Assembly: GCA_045634445.1 (NCBI GenBank) | Contig: JAZRAG010000014.1 | Coordinates: 15,272-79,271, forward strand | Source of the DNA: Candidatus Spyradenecus sp. | Lineage (GTDB): Bacteria > Verrucomicrobiota > Kiritimatiellia > RFP12 > DVOR01 | Length of the DNA stretch: 64,000 nt | Reading direction: 5' to 3' | Shown here: one piece after another, positions 10,480 through 21,964 of the stretch | Layout: the number at the start of each line of letters is the position of its first letter | Position numbering within the stretch: the first letter of the stretch is position 1 | Notes under the pieces: model-generated | What the model saw: the letters and a program-made list of their open reading frames with translations, nothing else | Database searches by the model: none | What the model was told of the DNA's origin: nothing | Made by a program: the position numbers and the translations under genes

Positions 10480-11215
10480 GAAGCGCCTAACAGCTCAAAA
10501 AACTAACCACCAAAATGCGCCCGAGCGCGAAGTGCTGGGCGTGAGCGAAGCGAACCTTCCACGGCTAAAACACACAAAACACACTAAAGGGACGTGGGGG
10601 CTGCGCGCCCCCACTCCCCGCGGCAGGGCTGAGCCCTGCACGGCATGTGTTTAGGAGTGCTCCGCAGGGAAGCCTTCGCACGGGACCTTCGCATTTTCCG
10701 CAAGAACGCTATCTCTTACTCCGCTTGCCCCTCGGCGCAAGAGAAATCCTGCTGCGCAGTCTTCCTCCCGAGGAGGCTACGCGGAGCGCTAAAGCCTTCG
10801 CTGGTTTTCCACGAGTCGCATAGGTCTTACAAGATGCTCGAAATGGGCACATCGTCCCGCTGCCCTTCGGGCCCGGGCGCATCGAGCTCATTTCTCGTCA
10901 TCTTGCGCTGACAAACCATAACATTTGGGAAAGAACTCCAATAATTTACGTAAGCGTTCCGTCGTCATACTCGGGAAGCGGAATGCAAAGCATAACGCTT
11001 CTTGCGCCGAGTTGAGCGACGGAACAAGATTTGCGTTCTTGCGTAAAATTCGTCGTGCTTTTCGCAGTCCTGCGGGCAAAGCCCGCCCAGCCCCGAAGGG
11101 GCGACAGACACATCACGAGATGCGTTGGCTTTTCGTGGGCGAAGCCCTCGTGTTACGAAAAGATCAACGTATCCTAGTGTCCTTAGTGTTAAACCCACTC
11201 GCTGTCCTGCTGCTA
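10480..11215 (+). repeat. Copy A (longest) of a modular intergenic repeat family: CA-rich tract, GC hairpin, conserved blocks
   Basis: Blocks cagaaCTAACCAC, cacaaaacacac, GTGGGGGCtgcgcGCCCCCAC, gtgctccgcagg, ttccacgagtcgca, gctcgaaatgggcacatc, catttctcgtcatcttgcgct and cagccccgaaggggcgacagacacatca-gagatgcgttgg recur in inverted orientation at 20337-20560, and partly at 13093-13190. Confidence 0.5.
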
Positions 11216-11270: not shown

Positions 11271-13067
11271 TTATTCGGTTTTAGCAGGCGCGGCCAAAAT
11301 TTCGCGGGCACGCGTTAAAGCATCCACGATGTGGCCATGGACATTGACCTGCCCAATGCGATCCAAGAAGCCCGAGCGTACCATCAGCATAAGGGGTTGC
11401 GCCGTGACGCCAGAGAGTACCAAGGTAATCCCACGCGCGCTGGCGTGTGCATACACCTCTTCAAGCGAGTGAAGGGCCGTTGCGTCCAAGACAAGCACAT
11501 GACGCATACGCAAGACCAAGACCCGCGGGCGGTTGCGACGATTCGAGAGCAAGGTGTCCTTAAACTTATCAGCGGCACCGAAGAAAAGGGCGCCATAGAC
11601 TTCGAAGACCTCAACATGCTCTGGCACCTCGATACCGGGTTGGCCCAAGTCATCTGCGCGCGGCGCTTCAGGAGCACCCGCGAGCAAACGGGTGATATTG
11701 CGCGCTTCAGTTGATTCGCTCATGCGTCGAATGAAGAGGAACGCCGCCAAAAGCACACCCGCCTGAATAGCCACGGTGAGGTCGATGAAGACGGTGAGTA
11801 AGAAGCTGGTCAACATCACGAGGATGTCTGAGCGCGTACTCTTAAAGATGCCCTTCACCAAGTGCAATTCACTCATGTTGTAAGCAACAATTGCCACCAC
11901 GCCACCCAGGGTTGCCATCGGGATCAACGCAGCATACCGCCCTAAGAACAACATAATAAATAAGAGGAAAACTGCGTGCAACATCCCTGCGACAGGTGTT
12001 TTACCACCGTTCTTGATGTTGGTCGCCGTGCGCGCGATTGCGCCCGTTGCTGGAATACCACCAAAGAGCGGAGAGAGGATATTGGCAATACCTTCACCGA
12101 TGAGTTCAGTATTTGAATTATGGCGACGCCCAATCATACCATCGGCCACCACAGCCGAGAGGAGCGACTCAATCCCCGCCAAAAGCGCGATTGAAATCGC
12201 CGGAGAAACCAATTCACGAATTGCGCTCCATTCAATCGCTGGGAATTGGGGCAAACTCAAGCTCATGCCCTCAGCCACAGCGGGGAACTTACTTCCGATA
12301 GTCTCCACATTGATGCCAAACGCCTCAAATGCCATTGCCAAAAGCGTGGTAATCACAATCGCCACAATCGACCCAGGCACCTTCTGCGTCACACGCTTCC
12401 AATAAATACAAATGAGAATGGTAATAAAGGAAATCGCCACCGCGCCCCAATTCACCGTTTCCAACGAATGCGCGTAAACATTGAGCTTCCCAACGAAGTC
12501 CCCTGGCATTTTCGCGTATTCCAGCGCCTTGAGCGCATCCGTGCAATTCAACCCAAGTAAGGCCTCAATCTGCCCCGCGAAGATGATTAAGGCAATGCCC
12601 GACGTAAAGCCTACCGTCACAGGGTAGGGAATGTATTTAATGATCGAGCCTAAACCACAAAAGCCGAGCACAATCAAAATCGCACCCGCCATCATGGTCG
12701 CAATCGCCAACCCCGACATGCCGAATTGCGCGTAAATGCCGTAGATAATGACGATAAACGCCCCCGTAGGACCGCCAATCTGCACGCGACACCCGCCCAA
12801 AGCCGAAATCGCAAACCCCGCAATCACCGCAGTGATCAAGCCTGCCTGCGGGGGGAGTCCTGCGGCGATAGAAAAAGCGATAGCCAAAGGTAAGGCTACC
12901 GCTGCCACAATCAAACCCGCCACGGCATCAGCCATGAAGGTCTTTAAATCATATCCTTCTTTGAAACATTGAACCATTTCAGGACGGAAGCGTTCCGAAA
13001 TGTTTTTGCCGATGCGTTTCCACTGGATTTTCATGTTGACCAATCCTTTTGTTTTAAAACGACTCAA
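11271..13067 (-). CDS. SulP-family anion transporter with C-terminal STAS domain
   Basis: SulP N-terminal motif (DAVAGLIVAAVALPLAIAFSIAAG), about 10 TM segments, and a STAS domain at the C-terminus. The start may instead be MKIQW at 13034. Confidence 0.8.
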   Translation of the reverse strand: MSRFKTKGLVNMKIQWKRIGKNISERFRPEMVQCFKEGYDLKTFMADAVAGLIVAAVALPLAIAFSIAAGLPPQAGLITAVIAGFAISALGGCRVQIGGPTGAFIVIIYGIYAQFGMSGLAIATMMAGAILIVLGFCGLGSIIKYIPYPVTVGFTSGIALIIFAGQIEALLGLNCTDALKALEYAKMPGDFVGKLNVYAHSLETVNWGAVAISFITILICIYWKRVTQKVPGSIVAIVITTLLAMAFEAFGINVETIGSKFPAVAEGMSLSLPQFPAIEWSAIRELVSPAISIALLAGIESLLSAVVADGMIGRRHNSNTELIGEGIANILSPLFGGIPATGAIARTATNIKNGGKTPVAGMLHAVFLLFIMLFLGRYAALIPMATLGGVVAIVAYNMSELHLVKGIFKSTRSDILVMLTSFLLTVFIDLTVAIQAGVLLAAFLFIRRMSESTEARNITRLLAGAPEAPRADDLGQPGIEVPEHVEVFEVYGALFFGAADKFKDTLLSNRRNRPRVLVLRMRHVLVLDATALHSLEEVYAHASARGITLVLSGVTAQPLMLMVRSGFLDRIGQVNVHGHIVDALTRAREILAAPAKTE

Positions 13068-13092: not shown

Positions 13093-13190
13093 AACTAAAG
13101 CGAAAAGGAAAGCCTAACATCACAGAAATTAACCACAAAACACACAAAACACACAAAAAATATGTGGGGGCTTCGCGCCCCCACCCCCGT
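13093..13190 (+). repeat. Copy B (5' fragment) of the repeat family: CA-tract plus GC hairpin
   Basis: cagaaactaa...aaccacaaaacacacaaaacacacaaaaaatatGTGGGGGCttcgcGCCCCCAC in the same orientation as copy A. Lies in the sulP promoter region, upstream of the tracrRNA. Confidence 0.5.
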
Positions 13191-13239: not shown

Positions 13240-13364
13240 CTCTTAGACGCAAAAATATGAGATAGTAGGGGTGAAAGAAATGGAGAAAATAACGGATTTT
13301 TGAGTGTTATTTCGTTGACATCTTGAGTGGTTGTGTTAAAGTATAGATGTAAGGATGGGGGTAT

Positions 13365-13436
13365 AAAAAAGCCCTATACGGAGTACGTATAGGGAAGTCT
13401 TTCGACTGCGGCATATAGCCTTGTTGTGAAAAGACG
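13365..13436 (-). ncRNA. Predicted tracrRNA of the type II-C system (anti-repeat, nexus, terminator); the 5' end may extend to about 13460
   Basis: The minus strand reads (CUAGAAUUAAGCC)GUCUUUUCACAAC-AAGGCUAUAUGCCGCAG-UCGAAAGACUU-CCCUAUACG-uacuc-CGUAUAGGG-CUUUUUU. GUCUUUUCACAAC is a 13/13 complement of the repeat 5' end GUUGUGAAAAGAC. AAGGC..GCCGCA resembles the Neisseria Cas9 nexus. A 9-bp terminator stem is followed by U6. Confidence 0.6.
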
Positions 13437-13441
13437 GCTTA

Positions 13442-13471
13442 ATTCTAGCCCATCGAGGAAATGTTTGTCAA
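13442..13471 (-). promoter_or_regulatory. Candidate sigma70 promoter for the tracrRNA (-35 TTGACA, 18-nt spacer, -10 TAGAAT), divergent from cas9 and overlapping its 5' region
   Basis: Read on the minus strand. The predicted TSS falls at the start of the 13-nt perfect anti-repeat. Confidence 0.35.
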
Positions 13472-13486
13472 TAAGGAATTTTAATT

Positions 13487-16400
13487 ATGAAGCGTTTAGG
13501 GCTTGATTTGGGTACGTCCTCTTTGGGGTGGGCGATTATTGATGATGAGTTAATGAATACTGCGCCTACGGGGTCTGCTGCGCCGAATCCGATTGATTGT
13601 GGTGTTGTTATTTTCCCAGAGGGTATGAACCGTGATAAATCGGATAATTTATCTTCGCCGGCAGCAACGCGTCGTATGGCACGTGCTGCGCGCCGTTTAA
13701 TTTATCGTCGTAAGTTGCGTAAGTTTCACTTGCTTCGTGCGTTGATGGATGCTGGGATGTGTCCTTTGAGTGAAGCGGGGTTAAAAGCATGGAAGGATGA
13801 GGGTAAATACCCTGTGAATGATGAAGCATTTATGCTTTGGCTTCGGTCTACCAATGAAAGTAATCCCTACGCAGACCGCAATGCTGCAGCGACGGCGCCA
13901 GTGGATAAATTAGTTTTGGGACGCGCCCTTTATCATATGGCACAGCGTCGAGGATTTAAGAGTTCTAAAAAAGAGCAGTTTGAAGCTTTGAGCGCGGAAG
14001 ATGTTACTGAACAGAAAGCGAAGAAGGCTTCAGAGGCTACGCAGACAAAGCAGGCGATTGATACATTAACCGCAGAGCTTGAAAAAGAGCATTTGACACT
14101 TGGGCAGTATTTTTATCGCCTTTTCCAGCAGAATGTGAAAGAAATTAATGCGGCAGGTTCTGGCGAAGTAAAGACCGAGCGTGTTCGTGGTCGTAAGACG
14201 GGACGTATTGAACACTATCAAAAAGAATTTGAACGTATTGCTGAGGTTCAAGGCCTTTCAGATGAATTGCGTGAACGTTTTGCTTCAATTCTTTTCTTCC
14301 AGCGTCCGCTTCGTATTCAACGTCATACCGTTGGGTATTGTGCACTTGAGAAAGGTCAGAATGCGCGTAAGTATCGTCGTTGCTTAAAGAGTCATCCTGA
14401 TTTTGAATACTATCGTGCACTTTGTTTCTTGAACAATCTTCGCATTGGTGAAACGTTAGCTTCGGGGAAAGATCGTCTTCAGCGCAATGAAGGCCGACGT
14501 TTAACCGATGAAGAACGTCAAAAGGTGTTAGCCGCTCTTCAGCGTATGAGTTCGTGTACGATTGAAGACCTTTTGGGTAAAAAGAAGCCGTTACTTGACA
14601 AGAAGTACTACACGAATTATCGCCCGAAAGATGATGCGCCAGTGATGGAAATTCGCGCACGTCTGACGGATTTGGGCATTCCTGAAGATAAGTGGCAGAT
14701 GGCATTAAATGCGGCAGTTAACTTTGATGACTTAGAAAAATTACTTGCTTGGGCACAAAAGCCAACAACTTTGGGCCTTTCTGCAGCAGATGCTCGCACA
14801 TTTGTGAAGATTCGCTTCTCTACAGATCGTGCAGATTATAGTTTGCATGCTATTCGCAAGATTATCCCTTATTTAGAGCGTGGATATACCTTGCGTAAAG
14901 CGACTTTCTGTGCAAAATTGGGTGACATCATTCCGAATTATGCAGAAAAACAAGAGGCTGTCCTTCAAGGTTTGTTAGATTGTGAAGCGCGCTATGAAGC
15001 GGAAAAGGAACGTAAAAAGCAAAATCAACGCCTTAAGGTACATCCGCTTGAGGGATATCATTACAAGAATTATTTGGCTACGACTTGGGATGTTTCGGAA
15101 GAAGCATATAAACAATTGTATGTGGATATTACAGAGACGGATAAGTCTAATCCTGTGTTGCCTCCTGTGGATTTAGAGTCTATTCGTAATCCGCTCGCTT
15201 GCCGTTCGCTAACGGTTTTGCGTCGTCTCGTTAACACCCTTCGCGCAAATGGTAAAATTGATGGGGATACGAACATCTTTATTGAGTTGGCACATACGGT
15301 GAATAGTGCAAATCAGTGCCGTGCGATTGAGATGTATCAGTTAGAGCAAAAGAAGAAGCGCGAAGAGGCAGTCCTGAAACTTCAGGAAATTATTCAAGAG
15401 CACAATCTTAAGATTGCGATTAACGAAGACTCTATTTTGCGTTACATTCTTTGGCAAGAGCAGAATGGTTGTTGCGTTTATACCGGTCAATCGATTGGCT
15501 TAAAGGCAATGCTGACGGAGTGTGATATTGAACATACAATTCCGCGTTCGCGTGGCGGTACAAATGAACTTGATAACCTCACACTTTGCACCAGCCATTA
15601 CAATCGCAATGTGAAGAAAGGAAAAATCCCAACGGAGTGTCCGAATGCCTCCGAAGAGTGGTATGACCCTGAAACAAAGATGACTTATCCTGCACTTGAA
15701 TTAAGCACACCGATTAAGAATTGGAAAGATGAACTTCAAAAGCTTAGGAAAGAGTTGGACAAAAAGCCTAAGCGTGGGGGTGACATCTCGGCTTATAATG
15801 ACGCACGTAAGCGTTGGCTTGTGAAGCAGATGAAGTGTACCTATTTGAAAAAGAAACTTAAATCATTTGAACTCTCTGCCGAAACTGTAGGTGGCGATGG
15901 CTTCATGCCACGTCAAATGGTTGACACAGGCATTATTACCACACAGGCTGTGAAATTCTTAAAGAGCCGCTATGAATATGTCTTTACGCGTAATGGCGCG
16001 GTAACCGCAGCTGCGCGTAAGGCTTGGGGAATCCAACACGAAGATGAAAAGAAGTCTCGTATTGATCATGTCCATCACGCAGTAGATGCATGTGTGATTG
16101 CGGCATTGGATACGAAAGCTTTCACGGATATTTGTTCTCAATTGGGTAAAGACGAAACCTTTACGCGTTGGAATACCGTTGTTTGTGAGCCTTATCCAGA
16201 CTTTGCACAACGCGTGAATGATGCAACCGAAAGCATTTTGGTACGCCACCTTCCTACGAATCGCCAGACCAAACCGATTGATAAGCGCCGTCAACGTATC
16301 CCGTTGTCGGTTGTGAAACGCCTTAAACAAGCACAATTATCCTCTGCAAAGGCAAAAAAGACATCGACCATCCGCGGTAGTCTCCATAATGATACGATTT

Positions 16401-17173
16401 ATGGAAAGATAAAGCTGAATGGTGAAGAAGTTGTCGTGCTCCGTAAGACAATTACAGCAGCAGGTACAGACTTTAAGAAGTGGGTGACACAAGGCAATGT
16501 CGTTGACAAAGGCGTTTGCGATGCACTACGAGCGCAAATCGCTGCTTATGAAGCGCAAGGCATTGCAGAAAAGGATTTGCCTAACCAAGTCTATAAAATG
16601 CCATCGGGTATTCCCATTAAGAAAATCCGTATTAAGGTGGCAAAACCCAAAAATCCTGATGCGATTCGTCAACAAGTCTTTGTACCCAAAGCGCCTGTTT
16701 ATGGCTCAGGAAGCGACATCCTTGGATTTAATGTCTGTAAAGATGCGAAGGGTAAACTTGTCGCAGAGCAGATCTCTTTGCTTGATGAGGCAAAGTCTTT
16801 CGGAGAAGGGATGTCTTCTGTGGACAAGTGTTTCAGCATCTATCCCATGCAACTTGCTTTCGCATATGAAAAGACTCCAGAAGAATTAAAGGCGCTTTCT
16901 TCCCGAGAATTGATGAAACGATTGTATGTCGTACGTCAAGTGGAAGAAGGTCAAGTCACATTTTACTATCACCGAGAAGCGAGAAGAGCGAAATTGCTTG
17001 CTGAAGAGTTAGAGAAAAACGGAAAGTCAAAAAAAGGTGAGTCTAAATTAAACTTCATTATCCCAGAGCGGAAACTACGAGTTGCAAGAGGTGTATTCTT
17101 AGACCACATGCTTTATGAAGGGGTTCACTTTACACTTTCAATGGATGGTGAGGTAGAATGGCTCAATGATTAA
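13487..17173 (+). CDS. cas9: Cas9 (type II-C), 1228 aa
   Basis: RuvC-I MKRLGLDLGTSSLGWAII. Arg-rich bridge helix (RRMARAARRLIYRRKLRK). HNH (DIEHTIPRSRGGTNELDNLTLCTSHYNRNV). RuvC-III (HHAVDACVIAAL). RBS aagga 9 nt upstream. Confidence 0.95.
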   Translation: MKRLGLDLGTSSLGWAIIDDELMNTAPTGSAAPNPIDCGVVIFPEGMNRDKSDNLSSPAATRRMARAARRLIYRRKLRKFHLLRALMDAGMCPLSEAGLKAWKDEGKYPVNDEAFMLWLRSTNESNPYADRNAAATAPVDKLVLGRALYHMAQRRGFKSSKKEQFEALSAEDVTEQKAKKASEATQTKQAIDTLTAELEKEHLTLGQYFYRLFQQNVKEINAAGSGEVKTERVRGRKTGRIEHYQKEFERIAEVQGLSDELRERFASILFFQRPLRIQRHTVGYCALEKGQNARKYRRCLKSHPDFEYYRALCFLNNLRIGETLASGKDRLQRNEGRRLTDEERQKVLAALQRMSSCTIEDLLGKKKPLLDKKYYTNYRPKDDAPVMEIRARLTDLGIPEDKWQMALNAAVNFDDLEKLLAWAQKPTTLGLSAADARTFVKIRFSTDRADYSLHAIRKIIPYLERGYTLRKATFCAKLGDIIPNYAEKQEAVLQGLLDCEARYEAEKERKKQNQRLKVHPLEGYHYKNYLATTWDVSEEAYKQLYVDITETDKSNPVLPPVDLESIRNPLACRSLTVLRRLVNTLRANGKIDGDTNIFIELAHTVNSANQCRAIEMYQLEQKKKREEAVLKLQEIIQEHNLKIAINEDSILRYILWQEQNGCCVYTGQSIGLKAMLTECDIEHTIPRSRGGTNELDNLTLCTSHYNRNVKKGKIPTECPNASEEWYDPETKMTYPALELSTPIKNWKDELQKLRKELDKKPKRGGDISAYNDARKRWLVKQMKCTYLKKKLKSFELSAETVGGDGFMPRQMVDTGIITTQAVKFLKSRYEYVFTRNGAVTAAARKAWGIQHEDEKKSRIDHVHHAVDACVIAALDTKAFTDICSQLGKDETFTRWNTVVCEPYPDFAQRVNDATESILVRHLPTNRQTKPIDKRRQRIPLSVVKRLKQAQLSSAKAKKTSTIRGSLHNDTIYGKIKLNGEEVVVLRKTITAAGTDFKKWVTQGNVVDKGVCDALRAQIAAYEAQGIAEKDLPNQVYKMPSGIPIKKIRIKVAKPKNPDAIRQQVFVPKAPVYGSGSDILGFNVCKDAKGKLVAEQISLLDEAKSFGEGMSSVDKCFSIYPMQLAFAYEKTPEELKALSSRELMKRLYVVRQVEEGQVTFYYHREARRAKLLAEELEKNGKSKKGESKLNFIIPERKLRVARGVFLDHMLYEGVHFTLSMDGEVEWLND

Positions 17174-18071
17174 ACGGACGCTTTGCTTCTCAACTCCAGG
17201 AAAACTCCGTCTTCACTTGCGCCAACTTCTTTGGTGTGGTGAAGATGGAAGAGAAGCAAGTGTGCCCATCGAAGATCTTGGGATTGTCATCTTAGAGTCC
17301 CCCTTAATCACTGTCAGTATGGCGCTATTACAAGCGCTAACAGAGGCATGTGTCGCGGTTGTCCTCTGTGATGCGTCCCATCTCCCTTCAGGCTATCTCC
17401 TTCCACAAGTATCACATACCCTTGCGAGTCGCTTTTTGAGAAATCAAATTGAACTTACAGATGCTCAATCGAGGCGCTTGTGGCAACAAATTGTTATCCG
17501 TAAAATCCAAAATCAAGCGTCTGTAATTCGGACATTAAATCCGCAAAAGGCGAACGAATTATGTGAGATGGCAGAGTTTGTTAAACGAGGAGATGTCACA
17601 AATATTGAAGCGCAAGCTGCGAAACTCTATTTTACGGCTTTTCCAATTTCAGAAGATGTCTTTCATCGTTCGCGTTATGGTACCATGCCTAATGCGGCAT
17701 TAAACTATGGATATGCGATTTTAAGAGCCGCAGTCGCACGATGTTTAGTAGCCTCAGGATTGAACACCACCTTAGGAATCCATCATCGTAATCAATATAA
17801 CCACTTTTGCCTTGCAGATGATGTGATGGAGCCCTATCGTCCCTTTGTAGATGCAATCGTCTTAGAGCATTTAGAGGCGTTCGAGAAAGCAGAAGAACCT
17901 ACGCAAGTCTCCACAAAAGGAAAGCAAATCCTCTTGCCGTTCTTGACAATGGATGTGCGAATAGGAGAATCAACGCGACCTCTTTTTAACGCCCTTCAAT
18001 TAACCACAGCATCTCTCGCACGATGTATCTGTAATGAACAAAAAACGCTCGAATTACCATCATTCCCATGA
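17166..18071 (+). CDS. cas1: Cas1 integrase
   Basis: Overlaps cas9 by 8 nt. Cas1-like conserved acidic and His residues. Position between cas9 and cas2. Confidence 0.9.
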   Translation: MIKRTLCFSTPGKLRLHLRQLLWCGEDGREASVPIEDLGIVILESPLITVSMALLQALTEACVAVVLCDASHLPSGYLLPQVSHTLASRFLRNQIELTDAQSRRLWQQIVIRKIQNQASVIRTLNPQKANELCEMAEFVKRGDVTNIEAQAAKLYFTAFPISEDVFHRSRYGTMPNAALNYGYAILRAAVARCLVASGLNTTLGIHHRNQYNHFCLADDVMEPYRPFVDAIVLEHLEAFEKAEEPTQVSTKGKQILLPFLTMDVRIGESTRPLFNALQLTTASLARCICNEQKTLELPSFP

Positions 18072-18415
18072 GTGAAGTTGAGTTTACAGCGATTAACCAT
18101 TACAAAGCAATGTGGCTTTACGCACTCTTTGATCTCCCAACAGAAACTAAACGGCAACGAAAAGCCGCTGCACAGTTTCGTAAAGGCCTCTTGCAAGATG
18201 GCTTTACAATGCTTCAATTTTCTGTGTATATTCGCCATTGTGCATCAAGAGAAAATGCAGAAGTTCACATTAAGCGCGTGAGAATGATAACACCAGAAGA
18301 GGGGCGTGTTGCGATTCTTGCGGTAACGGATAGACAATTCGATCAAATGGTCATTCTTTACGGGAAAAAAGAAAAACCTGCGCCACCTGCGCCAGTTCAA
18401 CTAGAACTTTTTTAA
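18068..18415 (+). CDS. cas2: Cas2
   Basis: 115 aa. Overlaps cas1 by 4 nt. Immediately precedes the array. Confidence 0.85.
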   Translation: MSEVEFTAINHYKAMWLYALFDLPTETKRQRKAAAQFRKGLLQDGFTMLQFSVYIRHCASRENAEVHIKRVRMITPEEGRVAILAVTDRQFDQMVILYGKKEKPAPPAPVQLELF

Positions 18416-18463
18416 ACAAAAAAAGAAACCGATTGACTCTTTTTTGAAGAAATCAATCGGTTT
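18416..18463 (-). terminator. Strong minus-strand intrinsic terminator between cas2 and the array; it would stop antisense pre-crRNA read-through
   Basis: Minus strand reads GAAACCGAUUGA-(16-nt loop)-UCAAUCGGUUUC followed by UUUUUUUGUUU. On the plus strand the same hairpin has no U-tract. Confidence 0.6.
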
Positions 18464-18477
18464 CTAAGTCTTCGGTA

Positions 18478-18498
18478 TGCTCCTTAAGATGTTATACA
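18478..18498. repeat. Inverted partial copy (18/21) of the CRISPR repeat, 21 bp from the first repeat: a hairpin partner, anti-repeat-like element
   Basis: ctccttaagatgttatacaat versus cttcttaagatttgatacaat (the reverse complement of the repeat's first 21 nt), with a 19-nt gap to the repeat at 18520. Confidence 0.5.
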
Positions 18499-18519
18499 AT
18501 AAAGACTTATGCATTCAAT

Positions 18520-20336
18520 ATTGTATCAAATCTTAAGAAGATGTCTTTTCACAACTCTCAAGCGGATTGACGTTACATCTCCAAAATTGTATCAAATCTT
18601 AAGAAGATGTCTTTTCACAACTGTACTTTACTAACATTAAGTGTCAGATTGATTGTATCAAATCTTAAGAAGATGTCTTTTCACAACTCTATATTGTTTA
18701 GTTTTGCAATCTCTTTGATTGTATCAAATCTTAAGAAGATGTCTTTTCACAACTGGCGGCCATTGAGACCTTCCGTCGTCAGAATTGTATCAAATCTTAA
18801 GAAGATGTCTTTTCACAACAACCTTCTTCAAGAATAGATTTAGAAACTTATTGTATCAAATCTTAAGAAGATGTCTTTTCACAACTGAAGAAGCGTATTC
18901 TTATGTTTGTTCTCAATTGTATCAAATCTTAAGAAGATGTCTTTTCACAACTCCTTTAGTCTATTCAACTGTTCAACGAGAATTGTATCAAATCTTAAGA
19001 AGATGTCTTTTCACAACACTTTGAACATTATCAATGTTTCGCAGACTATTGTATCAAATCTTAAGAAGATGTCTTTTCACAACTTCCGTTTAGCTGCGCT
19101 TTTCCTCTCTTCCATTGTATCAAATCTTAAGAAGATGTCTTTTCACAACACGAAAACCCAGAAGCAATCTTTTAAAGAATTGTATCAAATCTTAAGAAGA
19201 TGTCTTTTCACAACTCCGAACGGGAAAAAATGGTTTCAATCGTAATTGTATCAAATCTTAAGAAGATGTCTTTTCACAACCGTTATTTCAGCACTTTCTC
19301 GCGGTTTTGAATTGTATCAAATCTTAAGAAGATGTCTTTTCACAACTTTTAGTTCACAAACAGGAACATTAAAAGGATTGTATCAAATCTTAAGAAGATG
19401 TCTTTTCACAACCTATCTGCCTTTCCCTGGGTCTAGTTATGAATTGTATCAAATCTTAAGAAGATGTCTTTTCACAACTATAACTGGTATGCTGCTTGGT
19501 GCGGTGTCATTGTATCAAATCTTAAGAAGATGTCTTTTCACAACCTAAAACCCAGAAGCAATCTTTTAAAGAGAATTGTATCAAATCTTAAGAAGATGTC
19601 TTTTCACAACTGCAGTATCGCGTGCCGATGCTGGAGGCGGATTGTATCAAATCTTAAGAAGATGTCTTTTCACAACACCGCCCGAAGCAGTAATCGAAGC
19701 TAGTGCATTGTATCAAATCTTAAGAAGATGTCTTTTCACAACTGCGCTTGTAGCCATTGGTGGGATCAGCCAATTGTATCAAATCTTAAGAAGATGTCTT
19801 TTCACAACCACCGGCTCAAGATTGCGCGTGCTTTAGGGATTGTATCAAATCTTAAGAAGATGTCTTTTCACAACCTCCGGTGGCCCCATCTACCGCCTCG
19901 CCATATTGTATCAAATCTTAAGAAGATGTCTTTTCACAACATACCGACGTTGATTTCAATCAGTGTCCGGATTGTATCAAATCTTAAGAAGATGTCTTTT
20001 CACAACAATTGATGAATGTTGATATTTCAGATATTAATTGTATCAAATCTTAAGAAGATGTCTTTTCACAACAATCAGTTGGTATACAGGTTCTGGAATC
20101 GCATTGTATCAAATCTTAAGAAGATGTCTTTTCACAACAAAATATACTCGCAATACACAAAAGACCCTATTGTATCAAATCTTAAGAAGATGTCTTTTCA
20201 CAACTATCATGGCGACAATTAAAACAACAATAGCATTGTATCAAATCTTAAGAAGATGTCTTTTCACAACTACTGACGCGTTTAATTATATTTGTTCACA
20301 ATTGTATCAAATCTTAAGAAGATGTCTTTTCACAAC
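18520..20336 (-). CRISPR. CRISPR array: 28 copies of a 36-bp repeat (GTTGTGAAAAGACATCTTCTTAAGATTTGATACAAT in the inferred crRNA sense) and 27 spacers of 29-30 bp
   Basis: Exact 66-bp periodicity. All repeats are identical. The orientation call (minus strand) rests on the GTTGT...ACAAT termini, an extended -10 TGATACAAT at the repeat 3' end, the anti-repeat of the upstream tracrRNA, and the minus-strand terminator at 18416-18463. Confidence 0.95.
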
Positions 20337-20560
20337 CAACGCATCTCTTGATGTGTCTGTCGCCCCTTTGGGGCTGGAAAAGCGCGAGCGCAAGATGACG
20401 AGAAATGGAGATGTGCCCATTTCGAGCAGCGTGCAAGATTCGTGCGACTCGTGGAAATCCCTCGTCGTCCTGCGGAGCACCTTTTTGTGTGTTTTGTGTT
20501 TTTTGTGGTTAGTTTCTGTGCCGTCAGGCACTCGTATCCTGTGGTTTATTTCCTCACGTG
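20337..20560 (-). repeat. Copy C of the repeat family (inverted relative to A and B), abutting the terminal CRISPR repeat
   Basis: The reverse complement aligns block-for-block with copy A (cagaaactaaccac...cacaaaacacac, gtgctccgcagg, ttccacgagtcgca, gctcgaaatgggcacatc, catttctcgtcatcttgcgct, cagcccc-aaggggcgacagacacatcaagagatgcgttgg). The gcgttgg end lies 0 bp from the repeat. Confidence 0.5.
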
Positions 20561-20686: not shown

Positions 20687-21964
20687 ATGCCAAATACCAT
20701 TTTGATTGGTTCGCAATGGGGCGATGAGGGCAAGGGTAAGATTATTGACGTTTTGACCGCACAGGCCGATATGATTGTGCGTTATCAGGGCGGTTCTAAT
20801 GCTGGTCACACGGTGATTGCTGAGGGTGAAAAGCGCGTGTTGCGTTTGGTGCCGTCGGGTATCTTGCATGATGGCAAGGTGTGTGTGATTGGTAATGGTG
20901 TGGTGATGAATCCGTTGGACTTGATTGATGAAATCGAGATGCTCCGCAGCACGGGTATTGAGTGCAAGGGGCGCCTTTTCATCTCCACGCGTACGCAGAT
21001 GGTGATGTTGTATCACCGCGCTTTGGATAAGGCTGATGAAGCTGCACGTCCGGTGGGTAAGAAGATTGGTACGACGGGTCGTGGCATTGGTCCGGCTTAT
21101 GCGGCTAAGGTTTCTCGTACGGGTTTGCGCTGCGGTGATATGTTGATCCCCGAATTCCCTGAATTGGTGCGCGAACAGGTGTTGGAAACGAATGTGAAGT
21201 TGGCCCAGCTCAATGCGGATCCTTTGGATGCTGATGAGATGGTGAAGACTTACATTGAAGCTGCTGAAAAGCTTCGTCCGTACATCATCGACACGATTCC
21301 TTTGATTCATAAGGCCGATCGTGCAGGTCAGTCGATTCTTTTGGAAGGTGCTCAGGGCACGATGTTGGACATCGACTTTGGTACGTATCCCTTCGTGACG
21401 AGCTCGAACCCCACTTCTGGCGGTGCTTGCATTGGTTCGGGTTTGAGCCCGCGCCGCATTGACCGTGTGGTGGGCGTGATTAAGGCTTACACGACGCGTG
21501 TGGGCGAAGGTCCGTTCCCGACGGAAGATTTCGGTGAAGTGGGTAAGACGCTCGCTGAACGCGGCCATGAATTTGGTGCAGTGACGGGCCGTCCGCGCCG
21601 TTGCGGTTGGTTTGACGCTGTGGTGGCACGTTATGCTCAGATGGTCAATGGCGTTGACTTCTGGACGATGACGAAGCTTGACGTGATGGATACGCTTCCT
21701 GAAATCAAGATTTGCGTGGCGTATGAACTCGATGGTAAGCGCATTGAGGATATGCCTGCATCTGCTGCTGAATTGGCACGTTGCAAGCCGATTTACGAAA
21801 CGATGCCGGGGTGGTTGGAAGAAACTTCCAATGTGACCTCGATGGATCAGCTTCCGCTCAAGGCGAAGGCTTATGTGGATCGTTTGATTGAACTCTCTGG
21901 TGGCCGTTTGGGCATTCTCTCTGTGGGCCCGGCGCGTGAATCGACCATTCGCGTGGGCATCTAA
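20687..21964 (+). CDS. purA: Adenylosuccinate synthetase
   Basis: MPNTILIGSQWGDEGKGK P-loop and GTTGRGIGP motifs. The ORF-track start at 20558 is a spurious upstream extension. Confidence 0.9.
   Translation: MPNTILIGSQWGDEGKGKIIDVLTAQADMIVRYQGGSNAGHTVIAEGEKRVLRLVPSGILHDGKVCVIGNGVVMNPLDLIDEIEMLRSTGIECKGRLFISTRTQMVMLYHRALDKADEAARPVGKKIGTTGRGIGPAYAAKVSRTGLRCGDMLIPEFPELVREQVLETNVKLAQLNADPLDADEMVKTYIEAAEKLRPYIIDTIPLIHKADRAGQSILLEGAQGTMLDIDFGTYPFVTSSNPTSGGACIGSGLSPRRIDRVVGVIKAYTTRVGEGPFPTEDFGEVGKTLAERGHEFGAVTGRPRRCGWFDAVVARYAQMVNGVDFWTMTKLDVMDTLPEIKICVAYELDGKRIEDMPASAAELARCKPIYETMPGWLEETSNVTSMDQLPLKAKAYVDRLIELSGGRLGILSVGPARESTIRVGI

Follow-up and report, generated by a model that had tools for sequence, protein, structure and literature searches.

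A complete minimal type II-C CRISPR-Cas9 cassette with a compact tracrRNA in Candidatus Spyradenecus sp. (Kiritimatiellia)

Background

[quoted passage not shown] (Verrucomicrobiota; Kiritimatiellia). The locus lies within a 64,000-nucleotide stretch of DNA, hereafter the window (GenBank assembly GCA_045634445.1, contig JAZRAG010000014.1, positions 15,272 to 79,271 of the forward strand). A preliminary description made from the letters alone reported a complete minimal type II-C locus with a tracrRNA (the trans-activating CRISPR RNA), cas9, cas1, cas2 and a repeat array.

Subtype II-C is defined by the presence of cas9, cas1 and cas2 without the csn2 gene of II-A or the cas4 gene of II-B (PMC3737331). 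In Neisseria and Campylobacter, transcription of the II-C array runs counter to that of the cas operon (PMC3737331). In N. meningitidis the CRISPR RNAs (crRNAs) arise from promoters embedded in the repeats, starting at the sixth nucleotide of the spacer, and the Neisseria leader adjoins the last repeat (PMC12477760).

Here we present an analysis of this locus together with its relatives. We conclude, with a probability of roughly 85 %, that the region from about 13315 to 20336 is a functional-looking, horizontally acquired II-C cassette organised like the Neisseria meningitidis system.

Results

Gene content

The three cas genes are overlapping open reading frames (ORFs) on the + strand, cas9 beginning with ATG and sharing 8 nt with cas1, and cas1 sharing 4 nt with cas2 (Table 1). 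They are the sole sizeable ORFs between dauA and purA, so that neither csn2 nor cas4 is present and the gene content is that of subtype II-C, as judged from the ORFs and family models in that interval. Both neighbours are housekeeping genes, and the window's PurA, with 89 % identity to proteins named Kiritimatiellia bacterium, places the host in the Kiritimatiellia. The effector is one large Cas9 whose RuvC domain is split, with an HNH domain inserted, and the tracrRNA joins an anti-repeat complementary to the repeat to structured 3′ hairpins. All the defining features of type II and of II-C gene content that can be tested are present. Gene content, family models, structure prediction and the conservation and covariation of the tracrRNA together support the reading as a complete minimal type II-C locus. 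The preliminary description was exact in its coordinates and counts (tracrRNA, a cas9 of 1228 aa, cas1, cas2 and 28 repeats), in both overlaps and in the absence of csn2 and cas4; it had the tracrRNA end at 13365, as we find, and omitted its strand, which is minus, as it is predicted to be for the crRNAs.

Table 1. Features of the locus and its surroundings, numbered from the first letter of the window
Feature	Position	Strand	Remarks
Predicted cas9 promoter	13315..13342	+	TTGACA, 16 nt, TG-TAAAGT; 10/12 consensus matches with TG extension
cas9	13487..17173	+	1228 aa; TIGR01865 380 bits (cutoff 100); Pfam HNH_4, RuvC_III
cas1, type II (NMENI) class	17166..18071	+	301 aa; TIGR03639 cas1_NMENI 266 bits; PF01867 (Cas_Cas1)
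cas2	18068..18415	+	115 aa; TIGR01573 69.9 bits; PF09827 (CRISPR_Cas2)
tracrRNA	13365..13438	-	anti-repeat, nexus, second hairpin, terminator hairpin, U6; covariance model, terminator scan, fold z-score
tracrRNA anti-repeat GUCUUUUCACAAC	13435-13423	-	
tracrRNA nexus AAGGCUAUAUGCCG		-	directly after anti-repeat
tracrRNA second hairpin AGUC-GAAA-GACU		-	
tracrRNA terminator hairpin CCCUAUACG-UACUC-CGUAUAGGG	13394-13372	-	found by terminator scan
tracrRNA U6 tract	13370-13365	-	
Predicted tracrRNA promoter	13442..13471	-	TTGACA (13471-13466), 18 nt, TAGAAT (13447-13442); 11/12 consensus matches
CRISPR array	18520..20336	-	28 identical 36-nt repeats, 27 spacers
Leader-like flank, transcription-downstream end of array	18416..18519	-	104 nt between cas2 and array
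Conserved leader motif CTTTATTG	18497-18504		
Inverted degenerate copy of the repeat's 3′ half	18480-18502		inverted repeat I3, 23 nt, 87 % complementary
Intrinsic terminator for minus-strand transcripts	stem 18425-18464, U7 18424-18418	-	
SulP/DauA-type transporter (dauA), left flank	11271-13067	-	
purA, right flank	20687-21964	+	followed by uppS
Inverted repeat, left arm (context)	13112..13159	.	48 nt; I1, 90 % complementary to right arm; not shown to be part of the system
Right flank of array (context)	20337..20529	.	abuts last repeat exactly; ends in right arm
Inverted repeat, right arm (context)	20482-20529	.	90 % match to reverse complement of 13112-13159

A Cas9 of an uncharacterised clade

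The catalytic residues are invariant across the clade to which this Cas9 belongs: D7 (RuvC I), E600 (RuvC II), H683 and N706 (HNH), and H864 and D867 (RuvC III). The bridge helix (R62-R78) is rich in arginines, and these, like the catalytic residues, are invariant in alignments of 27 and of 87 sequences. An AlphaFold2 model of residues 1-1200, built from the 87-sequence alignment (predicted local distance difference test 84; predicted template modelling score 0.64), aligns full length in Foldseek to Nme1Cas9, the top match, and to ThermoCas9/GeoCas9, HpaCas9, CbCas9, AceCas9 and SaCas9, with template modelling (TM) scores of about 0.45-0.6 and structure-based identities of 15-19 % to the best-matching solved Cas9s. 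By sequence, Protein Data Bank (PDB) chains resemble it only in the HNH/RuvC nuclease core (E about 1e-22), and none matched beyond that core. The best matches in sequence and structure are II-C proteins (Nme, Thermo/Geo, Hpa, Cb, Ace); SaCas9, a small II-A protein, scores nearly as well.

More than 1200 Cas9 homologues were found in the protein collection. The Cas9 belongs to a populous, uncharacterised clade spanning Kiritimatiellia, Lentisphaerae and Bacteroidales, whose named members are metagenome-assembled genomes (MAGs) of the first two groups and, at 30-33 % identity, Bacteroidales of animal guts (Alistipes, Prevotella, Rikenella and others). No member of this clade appears to have been solved structurally or characterised biochemically; the library of papers searched has nothing on Cas9 in Kiritimatiellia, and none of its papers contains the tracrRNA core AAGGCUAUAUGCCG. 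The Cas9, proposed earlier as a candidate new orthologue, is uncharacterised; a 100 % identical protein, without a given name, is already public in an NCBI MAG contig. Its 1228 aa were called large for II-C, which is true against the compact model II-C enzymes (Nme, 1082 aa) and not against its own clade (1185-1266 aa in more than 100 homologues) or CbCas9 (1442 aa).

A conserved and covarying tracrRNA

The predicted tracrRNA runs on the minus strand from 13438 or 13435 to 13365 (71-74 nt) in the order GUCUUUUCACAAC-AAGGCUAUAUGCCG-CAGUCGAAAGACUU-CCCUAUACGUACUCCGUAUAGGG-UUUUUU. Its 13 anti-repeat positions (13423-13435) read GTTGTGAAAAGAC on the + strand, exactly what reverse-complementing the + strand repeat at its 3′ end gives. 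Judged by sequence, the succession of anti-repeat, nexus-like hairpin, second hairpin and intrinsic terminator is the canonical tracrRNA layout, and the region folds with a z-score of -5.3. Its promoter is the highest-scoring match to the consensus in the region (11/12) and would place the start at about 13435-13440, on or immediately ahead of the anti-repeat's first base. TTGACA and TAnAAT are kept at equal spacing in the related loci L080, L081, L083, L001 and L002.

These relatives are part of a set of 79 loci from a genome collection and 11 obtained from metagenome assemblies by Cas9 look-up. The core AAGGCUAUAUGCCG recurs in nearly all of them in the corresponding position, immediately upstream of cas9 and on the strand opposite to it. 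A covariance model built from eight close relatives gives one strong match per locus in 78 of 82 related loci, always in that position and orientation, and a single match in the window (13365-13438, minus strand; 101 bits, E 1e-23). The alignment used is the one based on this model; consensus folding from a MAFFT alignment misaligned helix 2. Across 79 hits, 99.2 % of the cells in paired columns are paired; sliding the partners by 1-3 columns lowers this to 38-47 %. In 12 of the 16 pairs both sides have changed in a compensatory way, and the observed covariation score was not reached by any shuffle. Because the terminator and the second hairpin change in sequence across relatives while their pairing persists, the tracrRNA is a real feature of the whole clade. 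At gathering thresholds Rfam has no match in the window, so the tracrRNA fits no Rfam family; this is no obstacle to its identity, since type II systems do not share a conserved tracrRNA sequence (PMC3737331).

Two side observations concern this RNA. Folded alone, the anti-repeat segment GUCUUUU pairs with the loop and 3′ arm of the tracrRNA's own second hairpin (GAAAGAC), a segment that resembles GAAAAGAC of the repeat; this pairing could be an alternative, self-sequestered fold of the free RNA, and from sequences compared by eye it is seemingly not shared by more distant relatives. Furthermore, tracrRNA promoters follow the host, being TTGACA/TAnAAT in Kiritimatiellia and TAnnTTTG in Bacteroidales.

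A short anti-repeat

That the anti-repeat is short had been remarked on before, and this is borne out: in the window and its closest relatives, repeat and anti-repeat form a duplex of 13 perfect base pairs, and the adjoining bases are mismatched. It is bounded by the tracrRNA's own -10 box, 6 nt further upstream, whose spacing to the anti-repeat is constant in L080 and L081 despite differing bases between. Other Kiritimatiellia members have anti-repeats of 8 bp, a UU/UU step and 5-7 bp, and Bacteroidales members of the clade have 8 bp, UU/UU and 9-11 bp or more. The comparison supports the view that the short anti-repeat is a derived feature of this Kiritimatiellia subclade.

The tracrRNA might instead start further upstream and form a longer, imperfect duplex that is processed by RNase III as in canonical systems. 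Beyond the two mismatches, three extra pairs (CUU:GAA) are possible at 13436-13441, promoter scans match a consensus only, and the Bacteroidales members do carry anti-repeats of 19-21 bp or longer. However, what lies upstream of 13441 is the -10 and -35 boxes themselves, where complementarity to the repeat is at chance level; the -10 box keeps its distance to the anti-repeat in close relatives as described above; and the start of a longer tracrRNA would have to fall within the region of the cas9 start codon or past it. We therefore regard an upstream start as unlikely. With a tracrRNA that starts at the anti-repeat, RNase III processing would probably be dispensable, because the duplex is very short and the promoters are internal.

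A hairpin of 5 bp can arise from repeat positions 14-26 and stack on the 13-bp duplex, cofolding giving a continuous helix of 13+5 bp. The repeats of the window and of L085/L080 differ at exactly two bases, and these are pairing partners (U15-A25 to C15-G25). The hairpin idea is weakened by its marginal stability (-0.2 kcal/mol, no better than shuffles) and by a register that drifts among relatives. We offer it as a hypothesis only that this cis hairpin replaces the upper stem that other Cas9s obtain from a long repeat:anti-repeat duplex.

The cas9 promoter and its overlap with the tracrRNA

The tracrRNA -35 box is 15 nt from the cas9 ATG, which leaves no room between them for another cas9 promoter. 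The predicted cas9 promoter is beyond the tracrRNA terminator, and consequently the entire tracrRNA would be overlapped in antisense by the cas9 5′ untranslated region (UTR; about 140 nt). Homology with relatives of about 90 % identity begins exactly at 13315, the -35 box of this promoter, and equivalent -10 boxes are found at this place in relatives. Such an overlap suggests mutual regulation, by which Cas9 and tracrRNA levels might be coupled. It is a tentative and rather doubtful proposal that the guide RNA of this subclade has been rewired as a whole, with a 13-bp duplex capped by a crRNA cis hairpin, independence from RNase III and a cas9 5′ UTR antisense to the tracrRNA.

The array and its spacers

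All 28 copies of the repeat (ATTGTATCAAATCTTAAGAAGATGTCTTTTCACAAC on the + strand; GUUGUGAAAAGACAUCUUCUUAAGAUUUGAUACAAU in the RNA sense, minus strand) are exact, and no further copy at 8 or fewer mismatches exists anywhere in the window outside them. The preliminary description thus stands on the uniformity of the repeats, on the absence of a degenerate terminal one, and on the lengths of repeats and spacers (36 and 30 bp), apart from spacer 10 with 29 nt; the other 26 have 30. In the RNA sense every repeat ends in TGATACAAT, an extended -10 box, and a promoter scan returns 28 minus-strand sites of the form AAGACA-16-TACAAT with TG. By sequence match, the locus therefore has the Neisseria-like extended -10 element at the 3′ end of each repeat. 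Each repeat would act as its own extended -10 promoter, with the crRNA starting about 6-8 nt into the next spacer and, because of that start, carrying a guide of about 23-25 nt.

Spacers 10 (19150-19178) and 16 (30 nt, 19545-19574) have a 26-nt core in common, identical in both and shifted by 2 nt, and diverge at the PAM (protospacer adjacent motif)-proximal end, as seen in the crRNA sense; the pair indicates two acquisitions from variants of one target. This shared core has no match in IMG/VR or the JGI metagenomes. All 27 spacers were compared by blastn with INPHARED phages and PLSDB plasmids without a match. Exact cores of 6 spacers are absent from IMG/VR, as is that of one spacer from the JGI metagenomes. 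The 1010 spacers of the window and all related loci match nothing in the window or in any of the DNA fetched, and the window holds no self-target at 6 or fewer mismatches. With no protospacer found, no PAM is inferred.

Mobility and activity of the cassette

The locus has 36-44 % guanine plus cytosine (GC), against 50-53 % in its flanks. Relatives of about 90 % nucleotide identity (85-90 % over cas9 through cas2 and the leader) align from 13315 into the array and sit among entirely different neighbouring genes; cassettes with at least 77 % Cas9 identity occur in five distinct genomic contexts. Because a cassette of about 90 % identity is found in other contexts, the unit moves, and these contexts and the GC content support its horizontal acquisition.

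Is the cassette still at work? One relative, L085 (13687-15582)/L086, at about 89 % nucleotide identity, keeps cas9 and the array, has lost cas1 past its first ~190 nt and cas2 wholly, and has point variants in 11 of 26 repeats; it looks like an adaptation-deficient, decaying copy of the window cassette. Decay therefore occurs in this lineage, and together with the absence of spacer matches in the phage, plasmid, viral-contig and metagenome collections searched it could be taken to mean that the window locus, too, is an inactive relic, carried along and no longer interfering or adapting. Against this stand three intact ORFs with invariant catalytic residues, 28 of 28 repeats identical, and the conservation of promoters, tracrRNA and leader alike; missing protospacers are in any case expected, since the viruses of uncultured Kiritimatiellia are poorly sampled. 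A relic is accordingly improbable. From its intact ORFs, catalytic residues and identical repeats, unlike those of L085, it is plausible that the locus is active or recently active.

Orientation of the array and the acquisition leader

Both the tracrRNA and the crRNAs are predicted to be minus-strand transcripts, running against the cas genes, because the minus-strand anti-repeat pairs with the minus-strand repeat, specifically with the repeat end that reads GUUGUG on that strand. Relatives whose arrays are flipped with respect to cas9 keep the same relationship among repeat, leader and tracrRNA, and this, together with the complementarity of the anti-repeat, fixes the orientation of the array. 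Within the clade (L001-L079), arrays are antisense to cas9 in most Kiritimatiellia and co-oriented in L003, L004, L007 and the Bacteroidales; regardless of these flips, the tracrRNA is always upstream of cas9, facing the other way.

The flank between cas2 and the array combines a conserved motif, an inverted partial repeat and a terminator (Table 1), and folds with z-scores of -4.9 and -6.5. This block is kept in 11 relatives whichever way the array faces; in L003, L004 and L007, with flipped arrays, it is at the cas-distal end. Degenerate repeats, seen in L023, L007 and L004, are at the opposite, transcription-upstream end of the array. By analogy with Neisseria, we infer an acquisition leader at 18416-18519, which would make the spacer at 18556 the newest. 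The array is thus antisense with its leader at the last transcribed repeat, the orientation following from pairing, terminator and promoters, and the acquisition polarity by inference.

It is highly improbable that the array is instead transcribed from the + strand, from the cas2-side leader, with 18480-18502 as the functional anti-repeat. In favour of this, 23 nt of the element complement the + strand repeat at 87 %, it contains a TACAAT hexamer, and it lies where leaders usually lie in type II-A, next to cas2. On the + strand, however, neither a nexus nor a terminator comes after it, and the array follows directly; the covarying tracrRNA, encoded upstream of cas9, pairs with the other end and strand of the repeat, the sole terminator between cas2 and the array acts on the minus strand, in L081 the element keeps its ancestral sequence though the repeat has changed (so that the two do not co-vary), and flipped arrays have the leader block at the cas-distal end.

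As a second anti-repeat alongside the tracrRNA, the inverted partial repeat was likewise rejected; it does not track the repeat changes in L081 and L001 and is for that reason more likely a DNA-level element of the leader than an RNA partner of the repeat. A sub-threshold Rfam similarity of 18422-18559 on the minus strand (last repeat, leader and terminator) to the Bacteroides small RNA BTnc231 was also set aside (27 bits against 80.4 needed, E 0.029), being probably a chance likeness between two hairpin-plus-terminator RNAs. BTnc231 comes from Bacteroides, and the Cas9 clade likewise occurs in Bacteroidales.

Repeats flanking the cassette

An inverted repeat brackets the island, lying about 150 nt beyond the cassette that relatives have in common with it. 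The 48-nt sequence, a CACAAAACACAC tract plus GGTTAAnTTCTGTG, occurs twice in 64 kb at 3 or fewer mismatches, against 0 expected by chance. A GC hairpin, GTGGGGGCnnCGCGCCCCCAC, adjoins the left arm at 13164-13184 and recurs with a third, diverged and partial copy of the repeat at 10567-10620, so that dauA is flanked by direct copies.

The right flank of the array (193 nt) is an inverted and internally deleted copy of non-coding DNA at about 10.5-11.13 kb, left of dauA. By blastn, 20337-20377 matches the reverse complement of 11087-11127 (41 nt, 95 %), 20387-20407 that of 10889-10909 (21 nt, 100 %) and 20407-20460 that of 10803-10857 (54 nt, 84 %). Pieces of this repeat family also lie beside the cassettes of L081, L085 and L007 in other genomes, and the family may be of the miniature inverted-repeat transposable element or repetitive extragenic palindrome (MITE/REP) kind or represent recombination scars. 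Direct repeats flank the whole tracrRNA-to-array unit in L046 (113 nt, 97 %), L005 (77 nt, 95 %), L007 (41+27 nt), L018 (37 nt) and L048 (27 nt), and are suggestive of cassette insertion or exchange around related II-C units. No empty insertion site was found: an exact look-up of the window's PurA gave no record, and PurA relatives of 89-90 % identity have other upstream neighbours, without the flanking repeat.

Discussion

Taken together, the locus would work as follows. cas9, cas1 and cas2 form one overlapping + strand operon, with the array and the tracrRNA oriented for transcription from the minus strand. Positions 1-13 of the crRNA repeat would pair with the tracrRNA, and Cas9 would bind the duplex and cut PAM-flanked DNA with its RuvC and HNH sites. 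Cas1-Cas2 would add spacers at the cas2-proximal end, by the conserved leader, which would be the downstream end of array transcription.

Several points weigh against the reading of this region as a functional-looking cassette of the N. meningitidis kind. The promoters and transcript ends are all consensus predictions. No protospacer was found for any spacer in the collections searched, and interference is accordingly a prediction. The case for the acquisition polarity comes from the degenerate repeats of three relatives and from the analogy with Neisseria; the one pair of near-identical arrays, L088/L089, is uninformative on polarity owing to a scaffold gap (a run of N). Finally, the covariance alignment is fitted to the model, by which the pair counts are somewhat inflated.

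The locus is a well-preserved representative of a large Cas9 clade of gut and rumen bacteria (Kiritimatiellia, Lentisphaerae, Bacteroidales). Given its compact tracrRNA (71-74 nt with a 13-nt anti-repeat) and the covariance model, a single-guide design could be written directly; at 1228 aa the protein is unattractive as a compact editor. At the level of sequence, the Neisseria-type organisation, with repeat-embedded promoters, an antisense array and a transcription-distal leader, is extended to the Planctomycetes-Verrucomicrobia-Chlamydiae (PVC) superphylum, which suggests that this layout is an old and widespread II-C solution. Current understanding of CRISPR-Cas9 is unchallenged: the uncharacterised clade and the short guide pairing region set apart an otherwise ordinary locus, more useful as a starting point for characterising its clade than for biology at large.

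Comparison with known systems

The closest counterpart in organisation is the Nme1Cas9 locus. Both consist of cas9, cas1 and cas2 alone, with 30-nt spacers, an array opposite to the cas operon and a leader at the last transcribed repeat; the repeats, compared using the N. meningitidis repeat sequence, are 36 nt in both (GUUGU...ACAAU) and carry an extended -10 element (TGnTACAAT) at the 3′ end. The two differ in the protein, which in the window is 146 aa longer, with a structure-based identity to Nme1Cas9 of 17-19 %, a TM score of about 0.5-0.57 and sequence similarity confined to the HNH/RuvC core. They also differ in the tracrRNA: in the window its gene lies upstream of cas9 and diverges from it, its anti-repeat is 13 nt long, and the cas9 5′ UTR would overlap the gene in antisense. 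The N. meningitidis anti-repeat is much longer and processed by RNase III, a processing that is dispensable. ThermoCas9/GeoCas9, CbCas9 (from Chryseobacterium, 1442 aa), AceCas9 and CjCas9 share the same bilobed architecture at 14-18 % identity, with full-length Foldseek alignments at E 1e-17 to 1e-30, and none falls inside the clade of the window Cas9.

In S. pyogenes the long tracrRNA form, tracr-L, autoregulates the cas9 promoter (PMC12477760). The window locus is similar in that its tracrRNA gene, too, diverges from cas9 and is physically intertwined with the region of the cas9 promoter. Unlike in S. pyogenes, no long tracrRNA form is predicted, and the predicted relationship is a full antisense overlap with the cas9 5′ UTR rather than a natural single guide that targets the promoter.

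Also comparable are the gut Bacteroidales loci (Alistipes, Prevotella, Rikenella microfusus, Hoylesella loescheii), whose Cas9s are of the same clade and 30-33 % identical over their full length. They share the tracrRNA core AAGGCUAUAUGCCG, the hairpin and the terminator, placed upstream of cas9 on the opposite strand, and differ in their 36-nt repeat (GTTGTGGTTTGATGTAG...), in longer anti-repeats, in arrays co-oriented with cas9, and in promoter boxes of the Bacteroidetes type (TAnnTTTG) rather than the sigma-70 type. In the searchable literature their repeat appears in a strain-tracking paper only. To our knowledge, these Bacteroidales loci are likewise uncharacterised, and they and the locus described here share one clade of Cas9 and one tracrRNA core.

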